From the IMG/VR virus record IMGVR_UViG_3300048917_000597, positions 1 through 52,977 of that record: DNA of 52,977 nt; one strand, 5' to 3'. This stretch comes from a virus. Below the pieces are notes generated by a model, which did no database searches, had not been told where the DNA came from, and worked only from the letters and a program-made list of their open reading frames with translations. This document shows positions 2,089-29,341 of this stretch, in pieces. Both the position numbers and the translations under genes were made by a program. The number at the start of each line of letters is the position of its first letter. Positions within the stretch are counted from its first letter, which is position 1.

Positions 2089-2098
2089 CGTCGGCTCC

Positions 2099-11499: not shown

Positions 11500-11530
11500 G
11501 TCGCCCCTCCTCGTGTGTTGGGCCTGAACC

Positions 11531-13537
11531 TCAGGCGCTTGCTGGCAGAACTGTAGGGGCGGCTGCCTCTACAGGTGCAACTGTTGGAGCACTTGTTGGC
11601 GAACCACTATTACTTCCCGGCTCCATCACACCTAGCTTCTGGAGCAACAGGCTCATGTTCTCCGCGAGCTGGGCCTGGCCAGCCTGCAGATGCTGGATCG
11701 CGGCACTGTTCATCTCGAGCTCGAGCTCGTTGCCGGAGGACATTCCCTCGATGCGACCCTCGAGGTCAGCGATGCGCTGGTCACGGGCCGACACCTCCTC
11801 GGTGTCGCCGTTCTTCCAGAGCAGGCCGAGCTCCTTGGCCGAGGCCGAGCCGGACAGCTCGATCTGCTTCTGGACGATGTAGGCCATGGCCCGCACCGCC
11901 TGCTGCATCATCTGCTGGTCACCGCTGTTGGCGATCGCCGGCATGGACTGGCTGAGCGGGATGAACAGCTGGTTCAGGATCCGCAGCTGCTTCTCGTCCT
12001 CGAGCTCGGTCAGGGATCCGGGGACGCAGCGGACGTAGTACTCGGTGGCCATGTCGCTGAAGTCCAGCTTCAGCGTGCCATCGTCGTCGAAGTCCTCCGG
12101 CGCCACTCCGGCCTCGAGCAGCTTCATGCGGGTGTCGCCGCTGGGCTGTACCTTCTGGACGCCCTTGAGCTCCTGGAAGTAGATGGTCAGCGCGTAGGAG
12201 CAGTAGTGGCTGAAGAAGGCTTCGATCGCCTTCTGGTAGTTGTTCGTGGTGATGTCGACCAGGGCGGTCTGAGCGTCCACACCCTGAGGTGTGTTGCTCA
12301 TGCCCTGGGCGTTGCCGGTGCCACCGCCAGCAGCCATCGCCATCTGCGGGTCGGCGCTTCCGACGAGGCCGACCATCGAGCCGAGGTTGTCCCGGCTGAT
12401 CTGGCTGTACTGCATCAGCGTCTGCGTGTTCACCTCGAACGCCTCGACCTTGGCGTTGGGGTTCGAGATCTGCGTGAACTTGCCGGGGCTCAGGTTCGGG
12501 ATCGAGTTGACGGTGCCGTAGCCGATGATGCTCGGGTTGATGTTGCGATACCAGAGCTTCATCGCACCGTTGAGCATCAGGTCCTGGAAGTCCTGGCGGC
12601 CGACGAGCAGCTCGACCTGGGACTTGCCGAGCGGCTGCTGGCTGTCCTTCTCGAGCACGAGGAAGTGGACGGGGTGCTGCTTGAGCGGGTGCTTGTTCTT
12701 CTCGATCCGGAGCAGCACCTTGGTGCTCTCGTGGAAGGTGAGGAACGGCTCGCCGGTGTCGGTGTAGAGGGTGATGATCTCGTAGCCCTCGGGGATCTGG
12801 TGGTGCTTCTTGGTCTGGTGGTCGACCGACTGCTGCTCGCGAGCACGCGGCGGGTTCTTCACCATCAGCCGCAGCGCCGCCGTGTCCCAGCCGGGCGCCT
12901 CGTCACGGATCAGTGCCATCGCCTCACCCTTGGTGAGATAGCGCCGGACGAACACCGAGGTGGCCAGGCGCACGTCCTTGCAGCCGGGCTCGGGGAACAC
13001 GTCGCGGTAGTGGATCGTGTCGTACTTCATGTACCAGGCGCCCTTGGCATCCTCGAGCAGCACCGGCAGCACGCAGTCGAACCCGAGCGTCAGCGCGGTC
13101 TTCGTGCTGGCAAACAGGTTCTGCTGCATGTCGTTGCTGTAGAGGTCGGAGCCGATGACCTTGGTGGTCAGCACGTGCCGGCTGAAGATGCCCTTCAGCG
13201 AGTCGTCGTCGAACTTGGAGACGACCTCGACGTTGGGCGCGTTCTGCACGAGGTTCCGGGCGATGCGCCGCACCAGGCCGGCGGTCTCGCCCGAGCTGAT
13301 GTTGGGCAGGTCCGGCTTCGGGGAGATGACCTCGCCGTCGGCCAGCTTCTCCAACGTCTCGTAGCGGGAGACGCGCATGTCCATCTCGCGCTTGAAGCGG
13401 TTGTACATGTGGTACACGTGGTCAGCGCAGGGCGCCATGGTCCGGAACTCGAGGCTCCCGTCACGCGGGTCGATGGTCCGGGAGTCGTACCACTGATCGA
13501 AGTCAGTGATGGGCTCATGCCCCGTCATTACTGCCAC
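11531..13537 (-). CDS. Portal protein
   Basis: 668 aa. GTG 13537 lies 8 nt after GAGGAAGG (alternative ATG 13528, TAATG junction), overlapping the giant ORF stop. The N-terminal ..NISSGETAGLVRRIARNLVQNAPN.. resembles the recalled T7 gp8-type portal N-terminal segment. The C-terminus is coiled-coil/acidic, and the gene lies directly upstream of the capsid gene. Confidence 0.8.
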   Translation of the reverse strand: MAVMTGHEPITDFDQWYDSRTIDPRDGSLEFRTMAPCADHVYHMYNRFKREMDMRVSRYETLEKLADGEVISPKPDLPNISSGETAGLVRRIARNLVQNAPNVEVVSKFDDDSLKGIFSRHVLTTKVIGSDLYSNDMQQNLFASTKTALTLGFDCVLPVLLEDAKGAWYMKYDTIHYRDVFPEPGCKDVRLATSVFVRRYLTKGEAMALIRDEAPGWDTAALRLMVKNPPRAREQQSVDHQTKKHHQIPEGYEIITLYTDTGEPFLTFHESTKVLLRIEKNKHPLKQHPVHFLVLEKDSQQPLGKSQVELLVGRQDFQDLMLNGAMKLWYRNINPSIIGYGTVNSIPNLSPGKFTQISNPNAKVEAFEVNTQTLMQYSQISRDNLGSMVGLVGSADPQMAMAAGGGTGNAQGMSNTPQGVDAQTALVDITTNNYQKAIEAFFSHYCSYALTIYFQELKGVQKVQPSGDTRMKLLEAGVAPEDFDDDGTLKLDFSDMATEYYVRCVPGSLTELEDEKQLRILNQLFIPLSQSMPAIANSGDQQMMQQAVRAMAYIVQKQIELSGSASAKELGLLWKNGDTEEVSARDQRIADLEGRIEGMSSGNELELEMNSAAIQHLQAGQAQLAENMSLLLQKLGVMEPGSNSGSPTSAPTVAPVEAAAPTVLPASA

Positions 13538-16500
13538 TGCTTCAGCCTTCCTCGCTCAGACCAGACTCTCTCACGCCGGACGTCTGCACGCCGGATGATC
13601 GGGTTCGTCGTGTTGATGAATGGGATGGAGTCGCCGTACGGAGCAATGGCGTGGGGAGGTGCGTACATCTTGTTGTAGTTCGGGTAGCCGCGGCTGGCGT
13701 AGCCACCGCCACCGCCGTAGCTGCGGTGGCCGTAGCCACTGCGGCTGTAACCCGAGGTGCCCTTGTTCTGGTAGGGCGTGTAGGGCGTGTACTGCTGCTT
13801 CGCCGCTTCCTTGATCGCATCCTCGATCGACTTGCCGATCTCGACGTCGGTCGGGGTGTAGCGGCTGTCATCGACGAGCTCGAGAGCTCGCATGCCGGTG
13901 TTGATCCGGTTGATGTAGTCGGTGGTGTTCAGGCGGCTGTCGGTGCCGGTGGAGCCCTTCTGGCCCGGGAAGCCCTGCTCGGAGGTGTAGAGCCGCTTCA
14001 CGGGCTGGATGCCGAGGGCGGTCATCAGGTTGCCGCGGGTGATGCCGGTGGCCCACGGCCGACCGTCAGGGCCCATCACGTAGGTGGTGTTGAGCTGGTT
14101 GTACGTGGCCATCGGCTGGTAGCTGATGTTCTTCGAGAAGAGGATGTCACCGAGGCCCTGGACCGAGGGGTCGGACGTTGGCCCGTACCAGAGCCGCTTC
14201 ATGCGGGCGGTGGCCTTGGTCTGGTCGAGGCCCATGTCGACGCCCTCTTGGATCAGCTCCTTCGTCCACTCCTTCGCGATCTCATCGCGCATGGTCATCG
14301 GGACGTAGATGCCGGCCAGGCTCGGGCTGTCGAGGGTGACGCTGTTCTTCATGATGCCCCAGTACACGGCGCGGGCACCGGCCTTGGTCAGCGCCTCGCG
14401 GCCAGCCTTGTCGATCACCGACAACGGCTCGACCGCGCCCTTCTGCTCCATGTACTTCTCGTGGGCGATCTTGTCGAGGTTGTTGTAGAGGTCCCAGTCC
14501 TTGGTGCGCATGGCCTGGCCCTTGAGGGCGTAGCGAATCTCGTCCTCGGTGATGAGCGGCTGGCCGCCCTGGTCGCCAGAGATCTTGCGGACCAGGCCCT
14601 CGACCTCCTCCTTGGTGGAGGGAGTCTTCGGGACCTCCTGGGTCTTGACCGGCATGTTCTTGCGGTAGTAGTCGTTCTGTCCGCCGGTCAGGCCGGTGAA
14701 CAGCGACATCGCGGTGGCCAGCGTGAAGCGGTTCTCGGTCAGCGCGTGCAACGTGCCGGACGCCGTGGAGCGGCCGAGGTAGCCCATCACGAGCTGGCCG
14801 GTCTCCGGGTCGACGTGCGGGGTCAGCGCAGTGTCCTGGCCGTACGGCTCGCCGACGATGTCCTTCTGGATCGTGCCGTCGCTGTCGGTCTGCGGCAGCT
14901 TGTACGGGTCACGGTCGTAGGCGTCCCAGCTGGTGTAGAGCTGGTTGACGAACGAGTTCTCGAAGAGCATCCGCTCGTACACACCGACGCCGTTGGTCAG
15001 CAGGGCCGCGGCCTTGACCATGTTGTGCGGCCCGCCGAGCGCAGCCTCGTCGTCGGCCATCGAGGCGAACTCGTGGGCGGTCTCGACCGCGTCGGACCAC
15101 ATCATCGTGTTGATCAGCGGGAACGAGCCGACGGCATCCTGGAAGCCCCAGGTGACCTGCTTGAAGTCGCCGGTCTCGTAGAAGCGCTCCATGCCGAGGA
15201 TCGGGCTGACGAACTGCTTGAGCGTCCAGTTCAGCCCGGCCATCGACCGGACGCCACCGGGCGCACTCGGGTCGCCGACCTGGAAGTAGGAGCCGAGACC
15301 GAACGGCAGCGAGTCGAGGAAGATCGAGTCGCTGTTGCGGAAGTCGTTCTCGACGGCGCGCGGGTCGTAGACGAACGGTGCACCCTGCAGCTTCGCCATC
15401 CGCCGGCGCTTCTTGGTCTCGTCGTCCTCACCGGACAGGCCGAGGCCACCGGCCATCATGCCCGCCATGAACAGGCCGGTGTGGGTGAGGCCGCCACGGA
15501 TGAAGGACCGGGACAGGTCGACACCCTCGAGGACGGTCGACATGTCGAAGTTGGCCTCGTCGTCGGGAGTGATCTCCTCGCCGTTGGCCTTGGCCTGCAG
15601 CCGGGACCAGAACGTCACCGGGTGCTTCAGCGCGTTCGTGCGGCCGTGCAGCACGGCGGCGGTGAAGTCGCTCATGCCCTGCATGCCGGTGATGGTGGTC
15701 ATCACGTTGAAGGCGTAGTTGGAGAACAGCAGCGGCATCTTCAGCAGCACGGTGCCGAGGAACGAGGTGGCGCTGTTGGTCGACTCGGACAGCGGCTCGT
15801 AGATCCCGCGCAGCGCCAGTGACAGCGGCGTCGCCTTGAGCGAGCGGAACTGCGCGATCGCGTTGGTGCCGGCCAGGTGGAGCTCGGGCGCGTTCTTCTG
15901 CAGCCACTGAGGATCCATCTGGAGGTTGTCCATCAGTGAGTCGATGGTGAGGTTGTGCTCGCCCGGCGAGAACGCGACCTCGTCCATGACGGCCTCGAAG
16001 TAGCGGCGGGCCAGGGTGTCGGACCGCATGCCCCACGTGGGGTCCTGCATCTTGGCGCCGAACTTGGCGTAGTTCTCGAGCCACTTCTCGACCTTGCCGA
16101 TGCCGTGCATCGACGGGCGCAGGTACATCAGGTCGCGGTAGACCATGGCCTTGAAGTCGTTACGCTGGCCGAGGACGGCGTAGACCTCCTTGGCCCGCTT
16201 GATCTGGTCGGGGCTGTAGCGGGCGGTGATGCCGAACTGCTCGGCGTACTGGCCGAGGCCGGTCTCGCTCAGCTTGGCCTCAGCCATCGCGAGCTTGCCC
16301 TGCGTGCTGTGGCCGACCAGCAGGTTCGCGGCACGGTCGAGGGTGCCGCGAACCCACTGCTCAGGTCCCATGGAGAACCACAGCGCGGGGTTGATCATGG
16401 CGGTGCCGACCCGGAGGTTGATCAGCATCCGCGCCAGGGCGTTGGTGTTCGTCGACATGTCGATGAACTTCTGCCCGTTCTTGCGCAGGTCCTTGACCGT

Positions 16501-19500
16501 GATGTCGAGCGGCATCGGGACGCCGTTCTCCTTGCGCCACTGGCGCATGGCCTCGCGGCGCTTGGCGATCACGGCGGTCGGAGCGTGCTTGGAGGTCTGC
16601 GGACCAGACACCCAGTTCTCGCCGGTGAGGTCGCCCATCGTGGCGCGGGTCGTGTCGAGCACGATCGGGTCACGGGTGAGCCGGTTCATCACATCGGAGA
16701 CCGAGGAGCGCAGCTGGATGTAGTCGTCGTTGGTCTGCGGGTCCAGCAGGAACATGGAGATCCGCGAGTCCATCGAGACCGGCAGGTTCAACAGCGACTC
16801 AGTCGCGGCCTGGTAGGTGTGCATGTGGCCGTCGAGCGCCAGCAGGAAGGCGGAGTCGAAGAGGTTGTCGCTGGTGAGCGCGCCACCGAGCGAGATCTCG
16901 ACGTAGTCGTCCCAGGTCTTGGCGATCTGAGACTTGGCCTCGAGCGAGGTGCGCAGAGCGAACGGCGTCAGCTTGTTCTGGTTCTCGGTGAAGATGATGC
17001 GCAGGTCGTTGACGTGCATCAGCGGGACCATGCCGCTGATCGTCGGCAGGTAGCCGTCCTTGACGTTGGCCAGCATGTCGTCGAGCGCGAGCAGCGCGTT
17101 CTTCTGCGTGATGCCGCGGCTGACCTCTGCGTCGGCGTCCATCGAGCTGGGCTGGCCGAGCAGCTGGCGGACCCAGAAGTCCACCATCGGTGCGTAGGAG
17201 TCGCGCAGGCCGAGCGCATGCACGACCTGGAGCCGCTTCGCCTTGTAGGAGTTGCGGCCGGCCTGGTCCCAGCCGTTGATGTCGTCGACCGGGATCTCCT
17301 GGCGGTACTGCACCATGGCGTCACGACCGTTGTGACGGCGAGCTGCCTCAGCCGGCATGTCGCGGCGCCAGCGGGTGCCGGCGTCGGCGTCGGCCAGGCG
17401 GTTCATCAGCCGCCAGACACCGCCGTCGACGACGTCCTCGTCGAAGCGCTCGAGGCCCTTGCCCTCGGTGAAGACCCTGGTCTTCGCCAGGTCACCGGCG
17501 TACGTGGTCTGAGCGCCGGTGGCGAGGTAGGCGATGGCCGCGCTGTGCGAGCTGACGGCGCCGTCCTGCATCTCGGAGAAGGCCATGCCGTTCTTGACCG
17601 GGTTGTCGCCGGAGGAGTGGACCTCGGCGATCTGCAGCCAGCCGGACAGGTTCTTCGTTGTGTCACCGGTGCCGGGTGTGGACTTGGCCGGCGCCACAGC
17701 GGCAGCGAACGCAGCGCCCTCAGCGGAGAGCACGTCGCTGTGGCGCGGCATCTCATAGCCGCTGTCGGTGGAGAGCGCCTCGGCGTAGCGCATCAGGTCA
17801 CGCGCGATGCCCTGCTTCTTCCACTTGTCGAGGATGTCGACGCTGATGATCTCGCCGTCGTTGGCGTCGTACCAGAAGTGGCCCATCGGCCACCGCTCGC
17901 CTTCCTTGTCGACGCGGAGCTTGACGATGGGGCGCTCGACACCGTCGACCATGTGGGCCTCGGTCGAGACGCCGACGGTCATGCCTCGGTCGGTGAACAG
18001 GCGCTCGGCCTCGTTCAGCGACATGACACCGGACTTGGCCGGCGTGCCCATGCGGATCTCGAGAGTGAAGTCTTCGGCCAGGCTGTAGCCCTCGCCGGGG
18101 TTGAACGGGCTGTTGTTGAACTGCTTGTTGAAGCGGCGGTTCATCTCCTTGCGCAGCTCGGAGCCGTGCGGGGCGAAGTCGAAGACCTGGGTGAACAGCC
18201 GCGGCATGAGGATCGACTGGCTGTCGGGCGTGGCGTTGTTGTCGTTGAAGCCGCCGGACTTCAGCACGTCGTCGACGCGGGCACCGGGCGTCATCAGGTA
18301 GAGCACCAGGGCCCGGGTGATCTGGGCCTCGGGGCTCTGCGGGTCTGCGATCTCGGAGACCCAGTCCTCGGTGGTGAGGTTGGCGCTGGCGTCAGCCACC
18401 GGCTTCAGCATCGCGGAGATCATGGCCGGGAACCGCGAGCTCGTCATCAGCTCGTCAGCGGCCTCGATCGTCAGGCTGTCGCGTCCGGTGGCGATCGCGT
18501 ACAGCAGCGCGCGGGCGTTGGCCGGCGAGGTCTTGAAGACCTTGGCCACGTCGGGCAGGAAGTCAGCACCGAAGATCGCGATGGCGTTGCGGTGGTTGTT
18601 GATGATCCCGTCGAACGCCTCCTTGCTGATCGTGTCGTGCTGGCTGACGATCATGTCGATGCCCCAGCCGGGGAAGAACCCGTGGTCGGGAAGCTTGATG
18701 CGCTCGCCCATCGGCGTGAGCATGTACTTCATCCCGTTCCACTCGACGACCTTCTTGTCGCCGAACTGCTGGAACGGAATGTTCATCTCCATGCTGAGGC
18801 CGTAGCCCGAGCGCGGGTTCACCGAGACGACCGTGCCGGTGTGGACGGTGGCCGCGTCCTCCGGGTCGGTCGGGAAGACCGCGATGTTGTGGGCGTCGGC
18901 CTTGTCCGGCATCGCGATCGACGTGAGCTTCTTGATCACGTCGTCCTTCGGCGCCTTGTAGCCGTGCCGGTACAGCACCACGTTGTGGTGGTTGTCGGTC
19001 AGCGGGATCATGTCGCCGATCTCGAACTGCTCACCCGGTGTCGGCAGCAGCGAGCCGGTGTTGGAGTCGATCCGCGCCATCAGCCGAGTCCAGGCGTGGT
19101 CGAAGTCGTCGTCGGCCTGCTGACGCTGCTTGCCCTTGAGGTGGCCGTTGGCCTGCTCCTTGAGGAGCTTCTGGCCGGCGGCGTCGTCGAGGCCCTTGAG
19201 GTGGGCGGCGACCTTGTCGACCTGGCTGGTGTTGCCGTACGACTCGACCGGCACGTTGAACCGGTAGAGGAAGTTGGACGGGATCAGGTCGACGCTGACA
19301 CCGATGGCGGACAGCCGCTCGTTGTTGGGCCGGACCCAGGCCGAGTTCTCCTCGATGTCCTTGTCGGCCACGTGAAGGATGGCGACCATGCTGCGCTTGG
19401 AGATGCCGCGCATCTCGGTCAGCGTGGAGACTCGGGCCCGCTGGTTCGCGTAGCGGCTGACCGAGGTGTTCGGCTGCATCACGTGGCCGGAGCCGGCCAT

Positions 19501-22500
19501 CCGCGAGTAGCCGAGGCCGTGGCCCTCGAGGTACTGCGAGAGCTCGGCTCGCATGTCACCGGTGCCGTCCGGTGAGGCCAGCACGATGATGGCTCCACGG
19601 TCGGCCAGGTAGTCGAGGCGCTTCTTCGCGGTCTCACGGTTGCCGCTGAAGGAGTCGAGCTCGACGACCACGATGTCGCCTGGGCTGACCCGGAAGCCCT
19701 TGCGGTCGTTGCCGAGGCTGTGCTCGTTGAGCTGGCCCTCGGGCATCTTCGCGTCGGACCAGCCCTCGCGGTAGACCCAGCCGGTACGGAAGCCATCGGC
19801 CTCGAGCATCGCGTCGACGTTCTGGATCATCATGCGACCGAGCATCGTCTCCTGCGGGTCGCGCATCCCGATGAAGGGGATGCCGGCGGCGATCCAGTCG
19901 AAGGCGATGTCCTCGGCGTGCAGGGCGTCCTCGCCCCGGGCGACGGCGGCCTGCAGGTTGCGCGACGGGTCGAAGCCGCCAGTGCCACGCTGCATCATCT
20001 CCGAGCGGTCGAGGTCGGACTGGATCCGTGCCTCGGCGTAGAACTTGATCCGGGCGTCGAACCGGTTGCGCTCGGCCTCCGACATCTGGCCGCGGACGGT
20101 GAGCATCGACTGCCGGGCGCGGTTGGCGATCCGGGTCTCGTCGAGGGTCTTCGTCTCACCGCTGACGCCCTTGATGAACCGGCCCAGCATGTCGGGCGTG
20201 ACGCCCCGGTAGCGCTTGACCTGAGTGATATCGGGCGTCAGCTGGTCGCCGAACAGGCGCTTGACGCCCTGGTCGCCGGTCTCACCGAGCATCGAGCGGA
20301 GCACGTCGTCGGACGGGATCCAGAGTGCGGCGTCGTTGAACGGCAGCGGCGCGCGGTTGCCGTCGGCGTCGGGCGGGTTGTTCCGCTGGAACTCCATGAC
20401 CTGCTCCGCCGACCACAGCACCGGGCTGCCGTTGGCGTCGGTGCCTCGCACGAAGTGCCGGATCTTCAGGCCCTTCAGGTGTGCGTTGTAGTACTCCGGG
20501 TCGAGCGTGCCGAAGCCGAGGTCGGTCTCGGTGAGGATGCGAGCCTTGGCCCGGAGCATGCCGGCGAAGTCGTCGGCCCACGTGCGCTCGATGGACTCGA
20601 CGGTCGCCTTGTCGGGGCCGGTGAAGTTCTGCAGCGCGGGCATGCCCAGCTTGCTGGCGTCCAGCGCCTGAGCCTGCGCGGTGGGGCTGATGCCGCCCGG
20701 CCGGAACCACAGCGTCTCGAGGAGGCCGTTGGCCGAGTCACCCGGCAGCTTGAAGCTGGTGCCCTCGAAGAAGAGGTTGTTCGCGAACTCGCCGTCGCTG
20801 GGCTGCGACTCGGGGTGGAAGAACTCCACCATGACACCGATGGAGTCCGGCTTCACCTTCTTGGCGTCGGCCAGGAACTCGACCGTGCGCTGGATGCGGG
20901 ACAGGTGCACAGCCTGGTAGCCGGTGGTCGACGCCTCCTCGACCGACCAGAACGGCACGCCGAGGTTCTGGTCGTACTTGAACAGGTCCTCCTGCGTCAC
21001 CTCGCCGGTCTCCGGGTCGACGAAGGTGGCGACCACACTGCGGGCGAAGCGGTTGTTCAGCATCGCCCGCGGCGTCGGGTTGTTCGTGCCGTCGGGCATC
21101 GTGACGTCGACCTCGTCGAAGTCGGAGCCGTTGGTCAGGTTGAACCAGGTGAGGCTGGTCTTCGACAGGTACGCCTCACCGGGATCGGTGTAGGACCGGC
21201 GCATCGCTGCAGCGATCGTGGCCTGGAGCTTCGGGCTGACACCGGCCTGGCTGATGGCCGGCTCGGCGGCGGCGGAGTCGAGGCGAGTGTTCGCCTCCAT
21301 CGACGCACGCGCCGTGTCCGGAGTCCAGCTGCCGAGGCTGTGCTCCTTGAACAGCGTCCGCCCCAGCACCTCGACGACCTGCTGGGGCACCTCGGTGTTC
21401 GTGCGCCCGGCACGAGCAGCGATCTCCATGCCTGCCTGGATCAGCGGGGAAGTCTGGTCCAGCAGAGGGTCTGCGATGTAGGAGAACGATGCGTCGAAGT
21501 AGCGCGCGTCGTACACGCCCTGGCTGGTGGAGACGTCGGGGAACGGCGGCGTGCTGATCCCCGGCGCCGTCATCGTGGTCGCGTCGGTGATGTAGACCGC
21601 GATCACCGCGCGACTGAGCTCGGCCCACTCGTCGTCGGACAGGTCCGGCTGGCCGGTGCGGGCCGAGTCGAGGATCTGGTAGGTGTACTTGTCGAGGGTC
21701 TTCTTGGACGCCATCATCGAGTCGACCCAGGCCAGGTGGCTCTGGATGAACGAGTGGATCGCGTCCTTCTTGGCCGCCGACTGGTCGGCCTCGCCCTTCT
21801 TGATGTTGAACATCGAGATCGCCCGGCCAGCCACACCGTCGGACTTGAGCAGGTCGACCCGCTCGACGAACCGGTCGTAGTCGGCCTGGAGTGCAGCGTG
21901 CTCCTTCTGGAGCTGGGCGACGGTGGCCGGGTCGCCAGCCAGCGCCGGGTCGATGCTCTCCGCTGCCTCGCGCTTCGCGTCCTCGAGCTGGATGGCCCGG
22001 GTGTCCAGCAGGTCCTGGATCATCGGGCCGAGCAGCGCCCGGTCCTCGGCCTTGATGCCGAGGTTGTCGGCGACCAGCATGTTGCGCTGCTGCAGTCCGA
22101 CGAGCCGGTGAACCGCGCGGAGCGGGTCGACGCCTGCGGTGGTGGGCGTCATCGCCAGCGAGGAGGCCGACTGCAGCGCGACCGCGAAGTCGTAGTAGGC
22201 GTCGCGGGTGAGCTGCTCGATCTCGTAGTTGGTGAGCTGGTGGTCGGCAGCCGAGGTGCGGGCGATCACCAGGTCGTTGACCGCGCGCTGCACTCCGAAG
22301 TGCGCCAGGTTGCCGCCGAACTTGCTGGCGCTGGACTCGACCAGCATCAGGTAGCGCATGGCCGCGTCGTACGACAGCCGGTCGTTCTTCGGGAACAGCT
22401 CCTTGTGGGAGTTGCCGTTGAGCAGGGACTTCAGGTCCTTGCCGACCAGGAGCTGGTTCGACAGGTAGCCGGCGGCGTTGGCCTCGAGGACCTGCGGGAA

Positions 22501-25500
22501 CAGGATGGCCCGGGCCAGCGGCCGGGTGTCGGCGTTCTTCAGCAGCTTGATCATCTGCTTGGCGTCGGGCTGCGTCCACTCCACGGTGCGACCCTCGTCG
22601 TCCATGGTGCGGACGCCGTCCTTCGCCAGCAGCGCCATGTTGCCCGACACGGCGTCGAGGTTGCTGGACGTCATCATCGCCATCAGCCGCTCGTAGTTCA
22701 CGGTGTAGCCGCGGGCGTCGCGCAGCGCGTCGAACATCCCGTTGAGCCGGACGTTCTCAGCGGTCTTGCCCTTGGTGTGGGACTGGGCGTTGAGCCCGCG
22801 CACCGCACCGATCGTCTGCAGGAGCATCTGCTGGCTGCCGACACCGACGATGTAGTCGTTGCTGTGCTCGATCGCCAGCACGAACTGCCGGTGGAGCTCC
22901 TCGTCACCGGCGTCGACCGCGACACTCGGGTCGTCGAGGTGGGCCAGCCACCGCTCGACCGCGCTGATCACCTGGAAGTCGGAGGCGATCGACGCCTTCT
23001 CGGTCGCCAGGTCGGAGACCAGGTTGTCGGCGGCCACTCGGAGACTGGAGATCGCCTCACGGAGCTCGGCCCCGTCGAGTGCGGTGGTCCAGCCGCCGTG
23101 GGCCTTGTCCTGGTCGAACTCCGCGACGTCGTCGACCCAGGCGGTCAGCGGCGCCTGGTTGCCCCGGACGCCCGGCGTCATGTTGACCCAGCGCATGAAC
23201 TCGCTCAGGTCGGTGGACTTCTCCATCTGCATGATGAACTGCTCGAGCATGAGGCCCTTGTCAGGGCTGGAGGACAGCGCGGAGACGATCCGGTGGATCC
23301 GGCGCGGCAGCCGGATGTTGTTGCGGCTGGCCTCACCCTCGGAGCCTTCGGACTTGCCCTGGTTGATGCCGAGGTAGTTGATCTCCGCACGCAGGATGTT
23401 GCGCCAGTAGTACATCTCCGCGTGCTTGGAGTCGGAGATCGCGAACATGTCGTAGACCCAGTTGGCGATGTGGAGGTTGTTCTCCTCGTCGACCCGGTAG
23501 ACCGAGTTGACCGCGGCGTCCGGGATCAGATCCAGCAGCTTGCGGGCGAAGTCGGGGTTCGCATCGAGCATCCGCTCGACGGTCTCGGCCGCGGTCTCGC
23601 CGTGCTTGCGCGGGGAGATCGCGATGAACTTGTTGAGCGCCGTCACGATCCGCTCGTGCGCGTTCTGGAACGAGTCGGAGATCCGGTCGCTGCGCTCGGC
23701 GAACTCGCCGGTCAGCTTGCCGGCCTTGTCGATCGTGAGCCGGTGGTGGCCGACCGCGAGGATCGAGTCGACCACCGCGCGGTAGGCGGTGATCTCTCCG
23801 GCCCGCATCTCCTCGAGACCGTAGGGGATGTTCTTGCTGCGCTTGCGACCGAGGTACTCGGCCTCACCCCGCAGCTCGGAGTCCATCAGGTAGCGGGTCT
23901 GCTCGGACGCACCGACGTAGGCGCGGGTGAACTGCTCGACGGTGAGCTGGGGGCCGAACACGTTGGCCGCCTCACCGAGCAGCGCGAACATCTGCTGGCT
24001 GCCGACGACCTCGACGAACGCGCGCTCAGCGTTGACCGGGTGGTCGGACCCACCGGGCCGGGTCATCGACTCGAGCGTGGCGTACCGGGCCTGCAGCTCC
24101 GGGCTCACCGCCAGGATGCTGGCCTTCTCGACACGGTCCTCGGCGATCGAGCGCTTCAGCAGCATCTGTGCCAGCGTGATCGTCTTCTTGCCGCCGACGA
24201 TGTTGCCCTTCGAGTCGTAGTCCCAGTCCGTGACGGCGGTGTTCGCCAGCACGGCCAGGGTCTCGGAGGCGTTGACGGTGTAGCCGAGCTTCGCGCTGAT
24301 CTGCTCGGCGCTGGACTCCGACAGCGCCAGGAGCTGGGCGTAGACCCGGGTGGTGATGTCGTCCTTGCCGCGGATGTCGTCGAGCGCGCTACGGGTGAGG
24401 CGCTGGCCCCACTCCTCGTAGATCGCGGCGAGCTCGGACAGCCGCTCCTGCGTGGGAGCCTGGTCGGCGCTGAGCACCGAAGCGAGCTGGCTGGCGTAGT
24501 GGAGCTTCTGGTCCTTGCGGAACATCGTGTCGCCCGCAGTGATCAGCCCGACCTCCTGGCCGATCGTGGCCGACCTGGCAGCGCGGCGCTCGCGCACCTC
24601 GTTGCTCTGCTGGTTCGGTGCCACGACGTCGGAGTTGGGCTGGGGGCTGATCATCGGGCGGTTGGCGGCGTAGTTGCCCTGGAACTCCTGGAAGCTGGTG
24701 CGCACCAGCTGGTCGATCCAGAGCCACTCGTTGCTGAGGTTGCCGTGGGCGAACTCGGTGATCTGTGTGCCGGCCTCGGACGCGAGCCCATCGAGCAGCG
24801 CGCTGCGTGCGCTCTTGACGTTGGACTCGACCGCGTCGTTGAAGTTGCGGAGGATCCGGTCGAGCACGACCTGGTCCACGACGTTGGCGTAGCGCCGGCG
24901 GATGCTCGCACCGATCTGCGTCAGCGTGGCGCTCGCGTACTTCTGGATCGCCTGGTTGCGACCAGTGAGCGCCTCGGACATGTAGTCGGTGATGAACTCC
25001 TCGTACTTGGGAGCGCCGACGTTCACGTGCTCACCGGCGCCGACGAAGTTCTGGCCGCTACGCCCGTTGGCGTACGACGCATCGTCGAGCACGAGCTGGG
25101 CGAGCTGGCGCACCTTGTCGCCGTCGTAGTCGCCACGCAGTGCAGGCAGCAGCGCGTGGGAGATCTGCACCACGTTGTCGCTTGAGTAGAGCGTGAGCTG
25201 CTCGGACGCCTGCGGCACGAGGATGTGGTAGGAGCCCGAGTCGGCGTGCGGGTCGCGGGCGAACACCAGGGACACGGCCTTGGCCAGATCGAGCTTGTCC
25301 TGGTCCGACATCGGCTCGGCCACGCCCTCGATGTCGACGCGGTCGAAGGCGTCCTGCAGGAACTGGTTCATGCTGCGGACCTCGGCGACGATCTCGGCCG
25401 GTGTCACACCGTCGGCGTGGATCCGCTGCAGCCGCTGCTCGATGTCGTCGTTGACGCGCTGGCTCCACACCAGCACGCGCTCGGTGTTGTCGAGCAGCAC

Positions 25501-27846
25501 CTGGGCCCGCGCGCCCTTGTCGATCAGGTCCTGGTTCGTCGGGTCGGTGGCCAGCGCCTTGGTGGCCTCGTCGACCTGGGCCTTGAGGTAGTCGCGCTGG
25601 ATGGCCAGACCGCGACCGTGGTTCAGGAGGTTGATCGCCAGCTGGCGGGCGCTGCTCCCCACGGCATCACCGCGCCAGCTGGCGTCCTCGAGCTGGATCA
25701 TCGCGAACGCACCATCGGTACGGCGGGTTCCGTGCTCGAGGTCTGCGGCCAGCTTGTTCTGGTAGGCGTCGTGCACCTTCTCGATGTGGACGACCGAGCC
25801 GGTCTGCCGCATCGCCATGTCGGAGCTGGCCTGCTTGTAGGCCGCCTTGAGACTCGAGGTCTCGATGGCGGAGAGCGCCGAGAGGGAGCGCTGCTGCACC
25901 TCGGTCATCGCGTTCCACTCGTCACGGCTGAGCTTCGCGCCACCGGTGCGCATCTCGTAGGCCGCGGCAGCCTGGCTGTAGGCCTGGGTCGCCGGGTCGA
26001 CCGCGTGGGCCTGGAACCCCAGCCCCATGCCGGCACCGGCCGCGAACCCGTAGAGCGCGCTGGTCCCGATGTCGGACAGGGAGATCGACTGGTTGTGGCT
26101 CAGGTTGTCGAAGACCGACTGCAGGCCCTCCTCGTAGCCCTCACCCATCGCGTTCACCACGATGGAGGTGAGGCGGCTGTCGCCCTGTGCCATGGACCGG
26201 GCCGCGCGGTAGAAGTCGTCGGCGCTGTAGGCACCGCCACGCTTGGCGGCCATCCGCATCCCGATGATCCGCGCGCTCACGTTGCCGAGCTGCTCGGACG
26301 GCGCCAGCAGCGCGAGGGTGGCCTTCTTGCCGGTGACGTTGCCCGCCTCGTCCAACGTCCACCGGACACCGACGTGCTCGAACTCGCGACCGGCCTCGGC
26401 ACCGGTGGCGTTCGCAGCGCCCTTGCGGAACATGTTCAGCTTGTTGCCGAACCGGCCGACGGCACCAAGGCCACCCTCGTAGACGGTCTGCTCGCCAGCA
26501 GCCCGCAGGCCGGAGTCGACCTTGCCGGCCAGGCCGTGGACCATCCCGAGCTGGACCGCGTCGATGCCGACCTTGCCGATGCCCGCAGCACCGGAGACCA
26601 GGTCGACGTGACCCTTGTCGTCGCGGAAGATGTTGTCGAACCCGCCGCGTGTGTAGTCGAAGGACTTGCCACCGGTGGCCGCGAGCTCGGTGACCTCGCC
26701 ACCGATCGTGCCCGCCATCTGCGTGGTGTAGAGCAGACGACCGACCGGGCTGCCGAACTGCAGCACGGAGTCGGCGACCGTGGCCCCGACGTCGGCCACC
26801 TGGAGCCACTTGCTCACCGTCCGGTCGCCCTTGTCGTCGAGCCGGTAGAACTCGGACTGACCGTCACCGGCATGCCCGAGATCCGCGACGCCCTGCGTCA
26901 CGTTGGAGATCGGGGACAGCAGCCGTCCACCGAAGCCGGACCACTGCTGCACCGCCGTGCCGACACCGGCGAGTGTGGAGTTCTCCTTGAAGCTCATGGA
27001 CGTGATCTCGGCAGCACGCGCGGCCTGCTGGTCGAGGGTGTCGCGGTTCAGCCAGGCACCGACGCCACCGACCGCGGAGCCGCCGAGGAACGCGACGCTG
27101 GTGGGGATCGCGTCCAGCGGCCCGAGCCAGGCGCCACCGACCGCGGTCACACCAGCAGCCAGCGTGCCGCCGGCCAGCGCGCCACCACCGACGATCGCAG
27201 CCTGGGACTTGCCCTCGGCGATCTCACCAGTGCGCCGGTCGACGTTCTCGTTGAACTCCTTGCTGGCCAGCATCTTGGGCACCTCGACGTTGTTCGTCTC
27301 GTGTGCCTGCTGGACCGCCGAGCTCAGAGCGGTGGTGGGATCGGAGTCGGCGTAGATGTGGGCCTTGGTCTTCGCGTCGAAGAGGATGTCGGCCATCATC
27401 AGGTTCGCAGTGGCCGGCTGGTTCTTGAACTCGTGGAAGACGTTGCCGACCTTCTTGCCGTTGTCGTAGATGTCTCCGAAGTGGAAGTCCTGGCCACTGC
27501 CGTCCGTCGCGGTGTGGTCCCAGGTCACGACACCCGTGGCGAACTGCGGCGTCTGGAACTGCTCGTTCAGCTTGCCCGCTTCGCCGGCCGCCTTGTTCGC
27601 CTCCATGGCGCGGGCCCAGAAGTCGGAGTCCCAGCCGTTGTTGGTGCCCTCGCGGTTCTGGCCGGTGTACCAGCTCTTCGCGGTGTAGGTCGTGGGATCG
27701 CCCGGATCGCTGCTCTGTCCGGGCGGCGCGTACGGGTCGTAGAGCCCGGAGTCCTGACGAGCCTTCGCGTCCTGCTGCAGACCGCTGGGGTTGGCGGGGT
27801 TGTTCGCCTGCTGGTTCGCGTACGGATCGTGCAGCTGCTGGGGCAC
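13528..27846 (-). CDS. Giant multidomain virion/ejection protein (4772 aa from GTG 27846; ORF open to 27951) with RNA-polymerase-like double-psi beta-barrel signatures
   Basis: This is a single uninterrupted ORF. GTG 27846 lies 7 nt after GAGGAGG. The N-terminus has Gly-zipper hydrophobic segments. GDYDGDKV is at ORF residues 940-947 (DYDGD = 941-945), preceded by RVDIEG and ARDP. GDKKVVEWNGMKYML starts at residue 3064. A GNAT-like stretch lies near residue 3378. A second hydrophobic Gly-rich segment lies near residue 4160. The C-terminal tail is Gly/Tyr/Ser/Arg-rich. Amino-acid composition is realistic, unlike the antisense shadow ORFs. Confidence 0.9.
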   Translation of the reverse strand: MPQQLHDPYANQQANNPANPSGLQQDAKARQDSGLYDPYAPPGQSSDPGDPTTYTAKSWYTGQNREGTNNGWDSDFWARAMEANKAAGEAGKLNEQFQTPQFATGVVTWDHTATDGSGQDFHFGDIYDNGKKVGNVFHEFKNQPATANLMMADILFDAKTKAHIYADSDPTTALSSAVQQAHETNNVEVPKMLASKEFNENVDRRTGEIAEGKSQAAIVGGGALAGGTLAAGVTAVGGAWLGPLDAIPTSVAFLGGSAVGGVGAWLNRDTLDQQAARAAEITSMSFKENSTLAGVGTAVQQWSGFGGRLLSPISNVTQGVADLGHAGDGQSEFYRLDDKGDRTVSKWLQVADVGATVADSVLQFGSPVGRLLYTTQMAGTIGGEVTELAATGGKSFDYTRGGFDNIFRDDKGHVDLVSGAAGIGKVGIDAVQLGMVHGLAGKVDSGLRAAGEQTVYEGGLGAVGRFGNKLNMFRKGAANATGAEAGREFEHVGVRWTLDEAGNVTGKKATLALLAPSEQLGNVSARIIGMRMAAKRGGAYSADDFYRAARSMAQGDSRLTSIVVNAMGEGYEEGLQSVFDNLSHNQSISLSDIGTSALYGFAAGAGMGLGFQAHAVDPATQAYSQAAAAYEMRTGGAKLSRDEWNAMTEVQQRSLSALSAIETSSLKAAYKQASSDMAMRQTGSVVHIEKVHDAYQNKLAADLEHGTRRTDGAFAMIQLEDASWRGDAVGSSARQLAINLLNHGRGLAIQRDYLKAQVDEATKALATDPTNQDLIDKGARAQVLLDNTERVLVWSQRVNDDIEQRLQRIHADGVTPAEIVAEVRSMNQFLQDAFDRVDIEGVAEPMSDQDKLDLAKAVSLVFARDPHADSGSYHILVPQASEQLTLYSSDNVVQISHALLPALRGDYDGDKVRQLAQLVLDDASYANGRSGQNFVGAGEHVNVGAPKYEEFITDYMSEALTGRNQAIQKYASATLTQIGASIRRRYANVVDQVVLDRILRNFNDAVESNVKSARSALLDGLASEAGTQITEFAHGNLSNEWLWIDQLVRTSFQEFQGNYAANRPMISPQPNSDVVAPNQQSNEVRERRAARSATIGQEVGLITAGDTMFRKDQKLHYASQLASVLSADQAPTQERLSELAAIYEEWGQRLTRSALDDIRGKDDITTRVYAQLLALSESSAEQISAKLGYTVNASETLAVLANTAVTDWDYDSKGNIVGGKKTITLAQMLLKRSIAEDRVEKASILAVSPELQARYATLESMTRPGGSDHPVNAERAFVEVVGSQQMFALLGEAANVFGPQLTVEQFTRAYVGASEQTRYLMDSELRGEAEYLGRKRSKNIPYGLEEMRAGEITAYRAVVDSILAVGHHRLTIDKAGKLTGEFAERSDRISDSFQNAHERIVTALNKFIAISPRKHGETAAETVERMLDANPDFARKLLDLIPDAAVNSVYRVDEENNLHIANWVYDMFAISDSKHAEMYYWRNILRAEINYLGINQGKSEGSEGEASRNNIRLPRRIHRIVSALSSSPDKGLMLEQFIMQMEKSTDLSEFMRWVNMTPGVRGNQAPLTAWVDDVAEFDQDKAHGGWTTALDGAELREAISSLRVAADNLVSDLATEKASIASDFQVISAVERWLAHLDDPSVAVDAGDEELHRQFVLAIEHSNDYIVGVGSQQMLLQTIGAVRGLNAQSHTKGKTAENVRLNGMFDALRDARGYTVNYERLMAMMTSSNLDAVSGNMALLAKDGVRTMDDEGRTVEWTQPDAKQMIKLLKNADTRPLARAILFPQVLEANAAGYLSNQLLVGKDLKSLLNGNSHKELFPKNDRLSYDAAMRYLMLVESSASKFGGNLAHFGVQRAVNDLVIARTSAADHQLTNYEIEQLTRDAYYDFAVALQSASSLAMTPTTAGVDPLRAVHRLVGLQQRNMLVADNLGIKAEDRALLGPMIQDLLDTRAIQLEDAKREAAESIDPALAGDPATVAQLQKEHAALQADYDRFVERVDLLKSDGVAGRAISMFNIKKGEADQSAAKKDAIHSFIQSHLAWVDSMMASKKTLDKYTYQILDSARTGQPDLSDDEWAELSRAVIAVYITDATTMTAPGISTPPFPDVSTSQGVYDARYFDASFSYIADPLLDQTSPLIQAGMEIAARAGRTNTEVPQQVVEVLGRTLFKEHSLGSWTPDTARASMEANTRLDSAAAEPAISQAGVSPKLQATIAAAMRRSYTDPGEAYLSKTSLTWFNLTNGSDFDEVDVTMPDGTNNPTPRAMLNNRFARSVVATFVDPETGEVTQEDLFKYDQNLGVPFWSVEEASTTGYQAVHLSRIQRTVEFLADAKKVKPDSIGVMVEFFHPESQPSDGEFANNLFFEGTSFKLPGDSANGLLETLWFRPGGISPTAQAQALDASKLGMPALQNFTGPDKATVESIERTWADDFAGMLRAKARILTETDLGFGTLDPEYYNAHLKGLKIRHFVRGTDANGSPVLWSAEQVMEFQRNNPPDADGNRAPLPFNDAALWIPSDDVLRSMLGETGDQGVKRLFGDQLTPDITQVKRYRGVTPDMLGRFIKGVSGETKTLDETRIANRARQSMLTVRGQMSEAERNRFDARIKFYAEARIQSDLDRSEMMQRGTGGFDPSRNLQAAVARGEDALHAEDIAFDWIAAGIPFIGMRDPQETMLGRMMIQNVDAMLEADGFRTGWVYREGWSDAKMPEGQLNEHSLGNDRKGFRVSPGDIVVVELDSFSGNRETAKKRLDYLADRGAIIVLASPDGTGDMRAELSQYLEGHGLGYSRMAGSGHVMQPNTSVSRYANQRARVSTLTEMRGISKRSMVAILHVADKDIEENSAWVRPNNERLSAIGVSVDLIPSNFLYRFNVPVESYGNTSQVDKVAAHLKGLDDAAGQKLLKEQANGHLKGKQRQQADDDFDHAWTRLMARIDSNTGSLLPTPGEQFEIGDMIPLTDNHHNVVLYRHGYKAPKDDVIKKLTSIAMPDKADAHNIAVFPTDPEDAATVHTGTVVSVNPRSGYGLSMEMNIPFQQFGDKKVVEWNGMKYMLTPMGERIKLPDHGFFPGWGIDMIVSQHDTISKEAFDGIINNHRNAIAIFGADFLPDVAKVFKTSPANARALLYAIATGRDSLTIEAADELMTSSRFPAMISAMLKPVADASANLTTEDWVSEIADPQSPEAQITRALVLYLMTPGARVDDVLKSGGFNDNNATPDSQSILMPRLFTQVFDFAPHGSELRKEMNRRFNKQFNNSPFNPGEGYSLAEDFTLEIRMGTPAKSGVMSLNEAERLFTDRGMTVGVSTEAHMVDGVERPIVKLRVDKEGERWPMGHFWYDANDGEIISVDILDKWKKQGIARDLMRYAEALSTDSGYEMPRHSDVLSAEGAAFAAAVAPAKSTPGTGDTTKNLSGWLQIAEVHSSGDNPVKNGMAFSEMQDGAVSSHSAAIAYLATGAQTTYAGDLAKTRVFTEGKGLERFDEDVVDGGVWRLMNRLADADAGTRWRRDMPAEAARRHNGRDAMVQYRQEIPVDDINGWDQAGRNSYKAKRLQVVHALGLRDSYAPMVDFWVRQLLGQPSSMDADAEVSRGITQKNALLALDDMLANVKDGYLPTISGMVPLMHVNDLRIIFTENQNKLTPFALRTSLEAKSQIAKTWDDYVEISLGGALTSDNLFDSAFLLALDGHMHTYQAATESLLNLPVSMDSRISMFLLDPQTNDDYIQLRSSVSDVMNRLTRDPIVLDTTRATMGDLTGENWVSGPQTSKHAPTAVIAKRREAMRQWRKENGVPMPLDITVKDLRKNGQKFIDMSTNTNALARMLINLRVGTAMINPALWFSMGPEQWVRGTLDRAANLLVGHSTQGKLAMAEAKLSETGLGQYAEQFGITARYSPDQIKRAKEVYAVLGQRNDFKAMVYRDLMYLRPSMHGIGKVEKWLENYAKFGAKMQDPTWGMRSDTLARRYFEAVMDEVAFSPGEHNLTIDSLMDNLQMDPQWLQKNAPELHLAGTNAIAQFRSLKATPLSLALRGIYEPLSESTNSATSFLGTVLLKMPLLFSNYAFNVMTTITGMQGMSDFTAAVLHGRTNALKHPVTFWSRLQAKANGEEITPDDEANFDMSTVLEGVDLSRSFIRGGLTHTGLFMAGMMAGGLGLSGEDDETKKRRRMAKLQGAPFVYDPRAVENDFRNSDSIFLDSLPFGLGSYFQVGDPSAPGGVRSMAGLNWTLKQFVSPILGMERFYETGDFKQVTWGFQDAVGSFPLINTMMWSDAVETAHEFASMADDEAALGGPHNMVKAAALLTNGVGVYERMLFENSFVNQLYTSWDAYDRDPYKLPQTDSDGTIQKDIVGEPYGQDTALTPHVDPETGQLVMGYLGRSTASGTLHALTENRFTLATAMSLFTGLTGGQNDYYRKNMPVKTQEVPKTPSTKEEVEGLVRKISGDQGGQPLITEDEIRYALKGQAMRTKDWDLYNNLDKIAHEKYMEQKGAVEPLSVIDKAGREALTKAGARAVYWGIMKNSVTLDSPSLAGIYVPMTMRDEIAKEWTKELIQEGVDMGLDQTKATARMKRLWYGPTSDPSVQGLGDILFSKNISYQPMATYNQLNTTYVMGPDGRPWATGITRGNLMTALGIQPVKRLYTSEQGFPGQKGSTGTDSRLNTTDYINRINTGMRALELVDDSRYTPTDVEIGKSIEDAIKEAAKQQYTPYTPYQNKGTSGYSRSGYGHRSYGGGGGYASRGYPNYNKMYAPPHAIAPYGDSIPFINTTNPIIRRADVRRERVWSERGRLKQWQ

Positions 27847-28886: not shown

Positions 28887-28902
28887 ATGTGGGGTCAGCG
28901 CT

Positions 28903-29162
28903 GGTGTAGACACCTGCCAGGGTGTCTACACATAACCGCAGGTCAGCGCGCACTTAGGGGTGCTGTAGACATGTAGACACCCCTAAGTTTGAAACCTTTC
29001 TACCCAGCGAAGCGACAGATGAAGTAGGCACCCATGTGGGTGACTACACTTTTTTGCCCTGTCTACGTGTCTACATCCACCAGAACAGGCCTCTGACCTG
29101 GGCTTATGTGTAGACACGTGGGGGGTGACTACACCCTGTCTACATCAACGGGGGTGACTACC
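28903..29162. repeat. Motif array A: about 8 exact plus 3 variant copies of GTCTACA/TGTAGAC (extended GTGTCTACAC); paralogous to array B
   Basis: Contains GGTGTAGACACC-tgccag-GGTGTCTACAC (28903-28931), TGTAGACATGTAGACACCCC (28964-), TGTCTACGTGTCTACA (29060-29075), GGCCTCTGACCTG.G.TTATGTGTAGACACGTGGGGGGTGACTACAC (29088-29134), CTGTCTACA and GGGGGTGACTACC. It is collinear block by block with 51699-51927. Confidence 0.9.
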
Positions 29163-29276
29163 ATCTATGTGTGGCAAACCAGGCTGCTTGCTAGCAGGAG
29201 AAGCACGTCTGCTTCGGTCGTACGCTCACGACGTGGCTACGCTTAGCCACAAAGATTAGTGACTCTTTAGGGAATA

Positions 29277-29341
29277 GGGAGTGAGAGATTGGATTCCAAT
29301 GCATAAGCATTGGGAGTGAGAGAGATTAGGGAGTGAGTGTT
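29277..29341 (+). repeat. Three direct repeats of GGGAGTGAG(AGA)...TT (Shine-Dalgarno-like) flanking a 7-bp hairpin
   Basis: GGGAGTGAGAGATT at 29277-29290, GGGAGTGAGAGAGATT at 29312-29327, GGGAGTGAGTGTT at 29329-29341 (the last serves as the RBS for ATG 29342). Hairpin CCAATGC-ataa-GCATTGG at 29296-29313. Confidence 0.75.

Follow-up and report, generated by a model that had tools for sequence, protein, structure and literature searches.

What does the giant gene of IMGVR_UViG_3300048917_000597 encode, and does its product hold both catalytic barrels of a two-barrel RNA polymerase (RNAP)? The window analysed here is the whole of this virus record, 52,977 bp with a G+C content of ~66%, and looks like a complete phage genome. 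On its minus strand, an open reading frame (ORF) of 4,807 codons runs from 27951 to 13528. The true start is likely the GTG at 27846 (ORF residue 36), which is preceded by GAGGAGG. This places the giant gene at 13531..27846 (-), with 4,772 codons for 4,772 residues, in a reading frame that is open from 27951. Residues are numbered from 27951, as in a preliminary description of this DNA, which had proposed that a barrel resembling that of the beta subunit lies about 2,100 residues downstream of a DYDGD motif. The peptides quoted there were all located on the minus strand in the giant ORF, which carries every one of the motifs. Read from the translation, these are DYDGD (residues 941-945; window 25117-25131) and, for the candidate barrel region at residues 2973-3104, GEQFEIGDMIPLTD (2973-2986), HGYKAPKDD (2996-3004), HTGTVVSVNP (3037-3046) and FQQFGDKK...IDMIVSQ (3060-3104; window 18640-18774), all (-).

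We favour, with some reserve, the reading that the product of the giant gene, packaged in the virion and ejected, is a two-barrel RNAP of the cellular (beta-prime plus beta) type, in which a beta-prime-like part is followed by a beta-like part in one chain. The downstream barrel is rather likely to be the beta-like catalytic partner barrel. Both the recognition of a two-barrel RNAP in this gene and its single-chain layout, beta-prime then beta, are new relative to the literature searched.

The module around the DYDGD motif

Barrel A (residues 895-949; 25105..25269, (-)) combines R899-x-P901 with D941-Y-D-G-D945, and thus shows the invariant Arg-x-Pro and the DxDGD metal-binding loop by which two-barrel enzymes are recognised. 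Conservation was counted over 93 sequences, comprising 89 full-length representatives of the protein family, the window protein and three phage proteins. R899, P901, D941, D943, G944 and D945 are 100% conserved among them. A profile of barrel A matched a phiKZ beta-prime piece in the PDB (7ogp_A, E 0.003), and hhalign aligned it with residues 419-470 of E. coli beta-prime (E 7e-4). The best sequence matches of the barrel A module, to phiKZ and AR9, are weak.

An AlphaFold 2 (AF2) model of residues 525-1440, built from 27 sequences, is nearly all helical, with a mean predicted local distance difference test score (pLDDT) of 76.6. Its sole barrel is the one at 895-949. When the model was compared with the PDB using Foldseek, the top 50 matches were all RNAP beta-prime-type chains (best E 8e-4, probability up to 1.0). 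They include T. thermophilus 9uko_D (E 8e-4), the cyanobacterial gamma chain 9dvs_D (probability 1.0), the AR9 non-virion RNAP beta-prime 7s01_d and vaccinia Rpo147. On the strength of this model, residues 525-1440 around DYDGD (23632..26379, (-)) are predicted to form a beta-prime-like module.

No second barrel is found in the model near barrel A, within 370 residues upstream and 500 residues downstream, and residues 525-894, upstream of barrel A, are helical except for two short hairpins. Because the DYDGD region is beta-prime-like and lacks a neighbouring partner barrel, the second barrel must come from elsewhere. This sets the protein apart from the single-chain enzymes QDE-1, YonO, crAss-like phi14:2 gp66 (6VR4), P23-45 gp96 (a tape-measure-fused virion RNAP) and P23-45 gp64. 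These are likewise of the two-barrel type, for which the present protein is a candidate. In the single-chain two-barrel RNAPs described so far, barrel B comes first, followed by a clamp connector and then barrel A (PMC10770324); in QDE-1, for example, D709, R738 and K743 precede D1007 (PMC2919709). Here, in contrast, there is no barrel within 370 residues upstream of barrel A, and the candidate lies 2,125 residues downstream. Membership in this class was rejected, as the upstream region is helical with no barrel B N-terminal to barrel A, and hhalign of the core against crAss-like gp66 gave no match. Enzymes of the QDE-1, gp66 and gp96 type are also missing from the top 50 Foldseek matches of the 525-1440 model.

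Upstream of barrel A, the window region 26034-26298 encodes further invariant motifs, namely P551-S-E553, G603-E-G-x-E-E-x-x-Q611 and a glycine zipper (G635/G639/G641). The conserved block that holds them (residues 540-650) is helical in the AF2 model, and the acidic helix of the 551-642 block is as conserved as the catalytic aspartates.

The candidate partner barrel

A second AF2 model, based on a 53-sequence alignment, covers residues 2950-3335 with a mean pLDDT of 88.6 and a predicted template modelling score (pTM) of 0.76. It contains candidate barrel B at residues 2975-3078 (18718..19029, (-)). The barrel is built from strands 2981-2985, 2991-2995, 3023-3025, 3039-3047, 3051-3057, 3065-3069 and 3074-3078, with a helix at 3003-3010 and a short one at 3060-3063. 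The order of elements is b-b-a-b-b-b-a-b(-b), where b is a strand and a is a helix, and two b-b-a-b units are the order of a double-psi barrel. The GDK sequence directly follows the second helix and opens strand 3065-3069; after a turn, strand 3074-3078 carries K3075, so that K3066 and K3075 sit on consecutive strands of one hairpin. The DxD loop of barrel A likewise follows an alpha-helix, between the fifth and sixth strands (PMC4996933), and in the model the GDK turn of barrel B occupies the equivalent site. Beyond strand 3074-3078, a long ordered coil leads into an all-helical domain packed after the barrel (residues 3104-3280; 18112..18642, (-)), most of which is modelled at pLDDT >90. The preliminary description had made its proposal depend on a barrel fold and on the lack of a confident match to some unrelated fold. 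The barrel is predicted with high confidence, and no unrelated fold is a confident match to it: the best PDB match has an E of 0.9, which is not significant, and significant matches in BFVD are confined to the protein's own family. The models and the alignment together indicate that the downstream barrel exists and is conserved.

The two lysines of the hairpin, whose conservation had also been regarded as decisive, are among the most constant residues of the region. K3075 (codon 18727..18729, (-)) is Lys in 93/93 sequences, and K3066, the GDK lysine (codon 18754..18756, (-)), is Lys in 90 and Arg in the remaining 3, hence K/R throughout. R2995 and G2997 are each kept in 92/93. At the start of the first barrel strand, G2979-D2980 (19012..19017, (-)) is conserved as G in 92/93 and D in 80/93, and K3110 (codon 18622..18624, (-)), which lies 35 residues past K3075, is Lys in 91/93. 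Within the middle of the giant protein, the barrel B region is among the better conserved segments, although the 93 sequences are mostly 25-50% identical in it and the representatives are at most 50% identical overall. Two-barrel RNAPs are defined partly by a pair of basic residues close to each other (PMC2919709, PMC4996933), which are K979/K987 in Rpb2 and R738/K743 in QDE-1, and K3066/K3075 form such a conserved pair a few positions apart. K3066 would then correspond to E. coli beta K1065 and Rpb2 K979, and we propose K3075 as the equivalent of beta K1073 and Rpb2 K987. The E. coli sequence used in the original comparison agrees with rpoB at E813, D814, K1065, K1073 and R1106.

The motif as first described, GDK with a second Lys 7-8 residues later, holds as far as both lysines are present and conserved; the conserved spacing, however, is 9 residues (87/93). 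Taken on its own, GDK-x(6-9)-K is present in 15% of the sequences obtained by shuffling the residues of the giant protein, with an expectation of 0.17 per shuffle. The bare motif is not beyond chance, whereas the conserved feature is. The resemblance to beta might accordingly be dismissed as a chance motif in a region without specific function, and two further parallels drawn in the preliminary description lend themselves to this explanation. The proline of the hydrophobic-Pro register match (P3080) is kept in just 54/93, and the aspartate of the strand in which IDMIV had been compared with VDIVL (D3099) in 40/93, in a segment that is coil in the AF2 model. As they are so weakly conserved, both register matches are probably fortuitous. 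The invariant Lys, the near-invariant Arg and Gly and a fold modelled at pLDDT ~90 speak against chance for the region as a whole. Its conservation over 93 representatives with overall identities of no more than 50% effectively refutes the chance explanation, to which we accord next to no probability.

Double-psi barrels also occur in wall-acting proteins of the RlpA, MltA and expansin type. The barrel could therefore be a lytic transglycosylase-like domain that aids the crossing of the Gram-positive wall and is unrelated to transcription, all the more as domains that degrade the wall are common in ejection proteins of short-tailed phages. Membrane segments are predicted in the giant protein (PMC7302621), which would fit such a role as well. 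We nonetheless consider a wall-acting barrel very unlikely, because no RlpA, MltA, expansin or barwin is found among the top 50 PDB Foldseek matches, there is no Pfam match, and invariance falls on Lys, Arg and Gly, whereas the catalytic residue of those enzymes is Asp. Moreover, the relatives have separate lysin and hydrolase genes.

Spacing of the barrels and the proposed enzyme

The distance between the barrels had suggested large insertions or processing into separate subunits in the preliminary description; for the insertions, a better reading is at hand. From D941 to K3066 there are 2,125 residues. In E. coli, the stretch from beta-prime D460 to the C-terminus (1,407) plus that from beta residue 1 to K1065 comes to 2,012 residues, so that the observed spacing is close to that of a head-to-tail fusion of beta-prime and then beta. 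Conservation along the giant protein falls into four blocks, at residues 36-485, 536-1935 (1,400 aa), 2086-3285 (1,200 aa) and 3436-4807, with variable stretches between them. The second and third blocks compare with 1,407 residues for E. coli beta-prime and 1,342 for beta. DxDGD lies at 0.29 of block 536-1935, against 0.33 in beta-prime, and GDK at 0.82 of block 2086-3285, against 0.79 in beta. The spacing, the block sizes and the motif positions together suggest two nearly full-length modules in tandem, one beta-prime-like and one beta-like, in place of insertions, and blocks 536-1935 and 2086-3285 would then represent the whole of either module.

Between these two large blocks lies a poorly conserved stretch (residues 1936-2085; 21697..22146, (-)) with a mean column conservation of 0.14-0.24, which is a candidate inter-module linker or cleavage region. 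Processing into subunits would accord with a single observation, a ~250 kDa protein seen in virions of phage Burro, from which processing has been suggested (PMC7302621). Two shorter representatives of the family (P0006 and P0037) were considered as cases of natural gene fission at the putative linker and proved to be contig-edge truncations.

The signature of barrel B is not found elsewhere in the protein. We scanned the whole protein for columns with ≥85% K/R over the 93 sequences. Upstream of barrel A, these are only R312 and K543, and between residues 950 and 2950 they are all isolated (R964, R1145, R1353, R1551, R1631, K1727, K2434 and R2649). Apart from basic residues in the KKRR membrane flank (4180-4183) and in the Arg cluster at the C-terminus, the only close basic pair is K3066/K3075, which makes the barrel at 2975-3078 the only candidate barrel B with the right signature. 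No other large ORF in the window is plausible as a beta subunit. The ORF of 1,156 aa at window 2099-5569 (-) was ruled out in this role as a nozzle-protein homologue; it has no Pfam match, and its homologues, at ~55% identity, carry no annotation in Microbacterium phages and the label 'nozzle protein' in Arthrobacter phage MissAmericana.

Several observations weigh against the identification of this barrel as beta-like. HMMER and HH-suite comparisons of candidate barrel B with beta subunits found no similarity. Searches of the PDB by hmmsearch with 8- and 53-sequence profiles gave no beta match, Pfam gave no match to beta domains such as Rpb2 on the 53 alignment members, and phmmer with the whole giant protein against the PDB opened no route to beta. 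No match was obtained by hhalign to E. coli beta, to 62 proteobacterial beta C-terminal regions (close relatives only) or to the family's own barrel A. When the whole family was compared with E. coli beta and beta-prime by hhalign in sliding windows, barrel A alone scored, and residues 1440-2950 showed no sequence similarity to either subunit. Membership in the RpoB/Rpb2 sequence family was rejected on the lack of profile similarity in the PDB hmmsearch, Pfam and hhalign. Among the top 50 Foldseek matches of the barrel B model, 14 are RNAP beta/Rpb2 chains (including 8r3m_C, 5vi5_C, 9kdq_B, 7pp4_c and 5d4d_C), all of them non-significant at E 1.6-6. Over ~180 aligned columns (118-285), they have a probability of 0.04-0.08, a query-length-normalised TM score (TMq) of 0.12-0.14 and a root-mean-square deviation of 9-18 Å, mostly ~14 Å. 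As the chains are mutually homologous, the 14 matches count as one event, and the alignments, which come without coordinates, may fall on the helical part rather than on the barrel.

The putative catalytic residues raise further doubts. The acid of barrel B (D837 in Rpb2, D709 in QDE-1) is reported to be invariant across two-barrel RNAPs (PMC2919709). D2980, the sole candidate for an acid that binds the second magnesium ion (Mg-B) in the present barrel, is kept in just 80/93 sequences, and no column with ≥90% D/E exists within residues 2950-3257. To equate G2979-D2980 with beta E813-D814 and the Rpb2 D837 acid is therefore speculative. K3110 is a possible counterpart of beta R1106 and Rpb2 R1020 by virtue of its spacing alone (35 against 33 residues past the second lysine), and it is Lys where the counterpart is Arg. 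The spacing of the lysine pair itself is 9, compared with 8 in cellular enzymes and 5 in QDE-1. The beta-prime-like model has a pTM of 0.47 and several segments below pLDDT 50, and another barrel could hide in residues 36-525 or 1440-2950, ~2,000 residues that lie outside the AF2 models. Biochemical data on RNA synthesis by any member of the family were not found in the literature searched. The identification as a beta-type double-psi barrel is thus not statistically established. Of the original proposal that two barrels are present yet far apart, barrel A and a conserved downstream barrel have been borne out, the latter as a candidate for the beta-type barrel.

These same points leave room for the idea that the barrel is an accessory small beta-barrel (SH3-, OB- or tudor-like), which would bind nucleic acid or cell-envelope polymers during ejection and lie outside the active site, with the true barrel B elsewhere or the enzyme atypical. 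The Foldseek list, in which every match is non-significant, also holds OB-fold and ribosomal small barrels (PrgE, TSST-1 and a ribosomal chain of 75-77 residues), and the missing profile similarity to beta, the residues outside the AF2 models and the variable D2980 all suit this explanation. Against it, no other region has a close conserved basic pair, and the order of strands and helices suits two b-b-a-b units, not an SH3 or OB fold. In addition, beta/Rpb2, the family that had been named in advance, is the most frequent one among the weak matches, and the spacing suits a beta-prime/beta tandem. We regard an accessory barrel as unlikely, though as a serious contender, and prefer to read the barrel as the beta-like partner.

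In the enzyme that we propose, residues ~536-1935 would form the beta-prime-like part with barrel A (R899-x-P901 and the Mg-binding D941-x-D-G-D945), and residues ~2086-3285 the beta-like part, in which barrel B comprises residues 2975-3078. The protein would be packaged in the capsid, as the Burro virion band suggests (PMC7302621), and ejected along with the DNA. Barrels A and B would be opposed to each other, whether the chain stays intact or is cleaved near residues 1936-2085. D941, D943 and D945 would bind Mg, while the K3066/K3075 hairpin would contact the RNA 3' end and the phosphates of the incoming nucleoside triphosphate, like beta K1065/K1073. By analogy with N4, crAss-like phages and P23-45, the enzyme may transcribe the first phage genes after ejection, before any phage protein is made. 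The N- and C-terminal blocks, with their hydrophobic Gly-rich segments and an invariant Arg-rich tail, might serve envelope crossing and packaging. In this scheme, we infer the pairing of the barrels, the cleavage of the protein, the polymerase activity and its timing.

The closest parallels for both modules are the multisubunit RNAPs (beta-prime/beta, Rpb1/Rpb2) and their split forms in the jumbo phages phiKZ (7OGP) and AR9 (7S00/7S01), which likewise have an R-x-P...DxDGD barrel A. The candidate barrel B resembles theirs in that a hairpin following a GDK-like turn carries two conserved lysines. Unlike in these enzymes, a single chain of 4,772 residues contains both modules, the beta-prime-like one first and the beta-like one second; ahead of them is a membrane-associated block of ~450 residues at the N-terminus, and after them another ~1,370 residues form the C-terminal block. 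Counterparts of alpha or omega are not evident here, nor is sequence similarity to beta detectable. Two large-subunit cores are likewise joined in one polypeptide in the Rpb2::Rpb1 protein Orf6 of yeast killer plasmids (PMC2919709). In Orf6, however, the order is Rpb2 (beta) and then Rpb1 (beta-prime), reduced to 982 aa, whereas the present protein has the opposite order, with modules of nearly full size. What the protein would have in common with the P23-45 type is a two-barrel enzyme housed in a giant protein of the virion, which presumably is ejected so that the first genes can be transcribed (PMC10770324). The virion RNAPs of N4 (gp50) and other schitoviruses offer a functional analogy, being also giant (~3,500 aa), packaged in the capsid of a short-tailed phage and co-ejected with DNA (PMC13434306). 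N4 gp50 is a T7-like single-subunit polymerase, unlike the two-barrel type proposed here, and an N4-like (T7-type) virion RNAP was rejected, as the whole protein has no Pfam, PHROGs or PDB sequence match and a lack of similarity has been reported (PMC7302621).

It is possible, if somewhat doubtful, that the gene encodes a complete cellular-type RNAP core. Near full-length beta-prime-like and then beta-like modules would be fused in one ejected virion protein, which may be cut at 1936-2085 into two halves of ~250 kDa that reassemble. This would be an unrecognised, highly diverged two-barrel family, of which only the DxDGD barrel is visible by sequence, and the first virion RNAP for phages of Gram-positive Actinobacteria. 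If true, a polymerase complete with both barrels would account for the start of infection by these phages, and the order of beta-prime and then beta in a giant ejected chain would provide a new architecture for reasoning on RNA polymerase evolution.

The protein family and neighbouring features

With a length of more than 13 kb, the giant gene accounts for a quarter of the genome in these phages. Searches of phage genomes with tblastn matched only >13 kb genes of short-tailed Microbacterium phages (Burro, Araxxi, Arete and cluster EK phages such as Akoni) and of Arthrobacter phage MissAmericana; the proteins share 25-35% identity along their full length. An exhaustive HMMER search, for which residues 2930-3330 served as the query, brought up 117 representative proteins, nearly all of 4,400-4,850 residues, in which the matched region always lies near position 2,800-3,050. 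In every full-length representative, DxDGD is found near position 800-1,000. A word-indexed protein search with the 401-aa region or an 8-sequence alignment returned no homologues from a database that apparently lacks this family. With Burro and relatives in culture and at least 89 diverged full-length homologues in metagenomes, the system is tractable.

The gene has been called the largest actinobacteriophage gene, with no informative domains and no similarity to the N4 virion RNAP (Jacobs-Sera et al., PMC7302621), and a genome note of March 2026 states that its function 'remains elusive' (PMC13069448). An RNA polymerase label for this gene family was not found in the literature searched, and the reading as a two-barrel RNAP would, if true, resolve this conspicuous unknown. 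Homologues are tagged 'tail length tape measure protein' or 'tape measure protein' in NC_048801, NC_048860 and PQ184795, and the label was seen on the Araxxi, Arete and MissAmericana homologues (RefSeq or GenBank). As the relatives are short-tailed phages (PMC7302621, PMC13069448), the label is unfitting and was probably assigned from size alone. A tape measure identity was ruled out by the short tails together with the position of the gene directly upstream of the portal gene. The end of the giant gene overlaps the start of the portal gene (11531-13537), and this arrangement, with overlap, is found in both the window and Burro.

The putative capsid gene (window 10133-11521) has ~81% DNA identity to Burro gp29, while the adjoining giant protein is only ~35% identical. 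Given this very uneven divergence inside a single structural operon, the giant gene evolves much faster than the capsid gene. A stretch of ~100 residues (~3336-3435; window 17647-17946), where the third conserved block borders on the fourth, is lacking in almost all of the 92 other aligned sequences (column conservation ~0). A GNAT-like impression of this stretch was discarded, as it has no Pfam support and only a weak DUF6930 match (E 0.049). The last ~20 residues (RRADVRRERVWSERGRLKQWQ, window 13531-13593) are almost invariant in the 93 homologues and constitute the best conserved part of the protein. A conserved KKRR (window 15403-15414) follows a hydrophobic Gly-rich segment, at residues ~4155-4183. 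The C-terminal RRADVRRERVWSERGRLKQWQ tail and the KKRR may be signals for packaging or ejection and for membrane topology.

In the window, structural genes run leftward and replication genes (family A DNA polymerase, helicase) rightward, and a divergent region of low GC content separates both. This intergenic region (window 28900-29340, GC 0.555), bounded by the giant gene on one side and the rightward genes on the other, contains three sets of repeats. The 8-mers TGTAGACA/TGTCTACA are clustered in both orientations at 28904-29150, and a 58-nt imperfect inverted repeat (28922-28979 / 29060-29117) lies within this cluster. There are three copies of GGGTGACTACAC in the region and three of ATAGGGAGTGAGAGA, the latter immediately ahead of the first rightward ORF. 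The repeats might mark an origin, bind a regulator or act as promoters for the virion enzyme.

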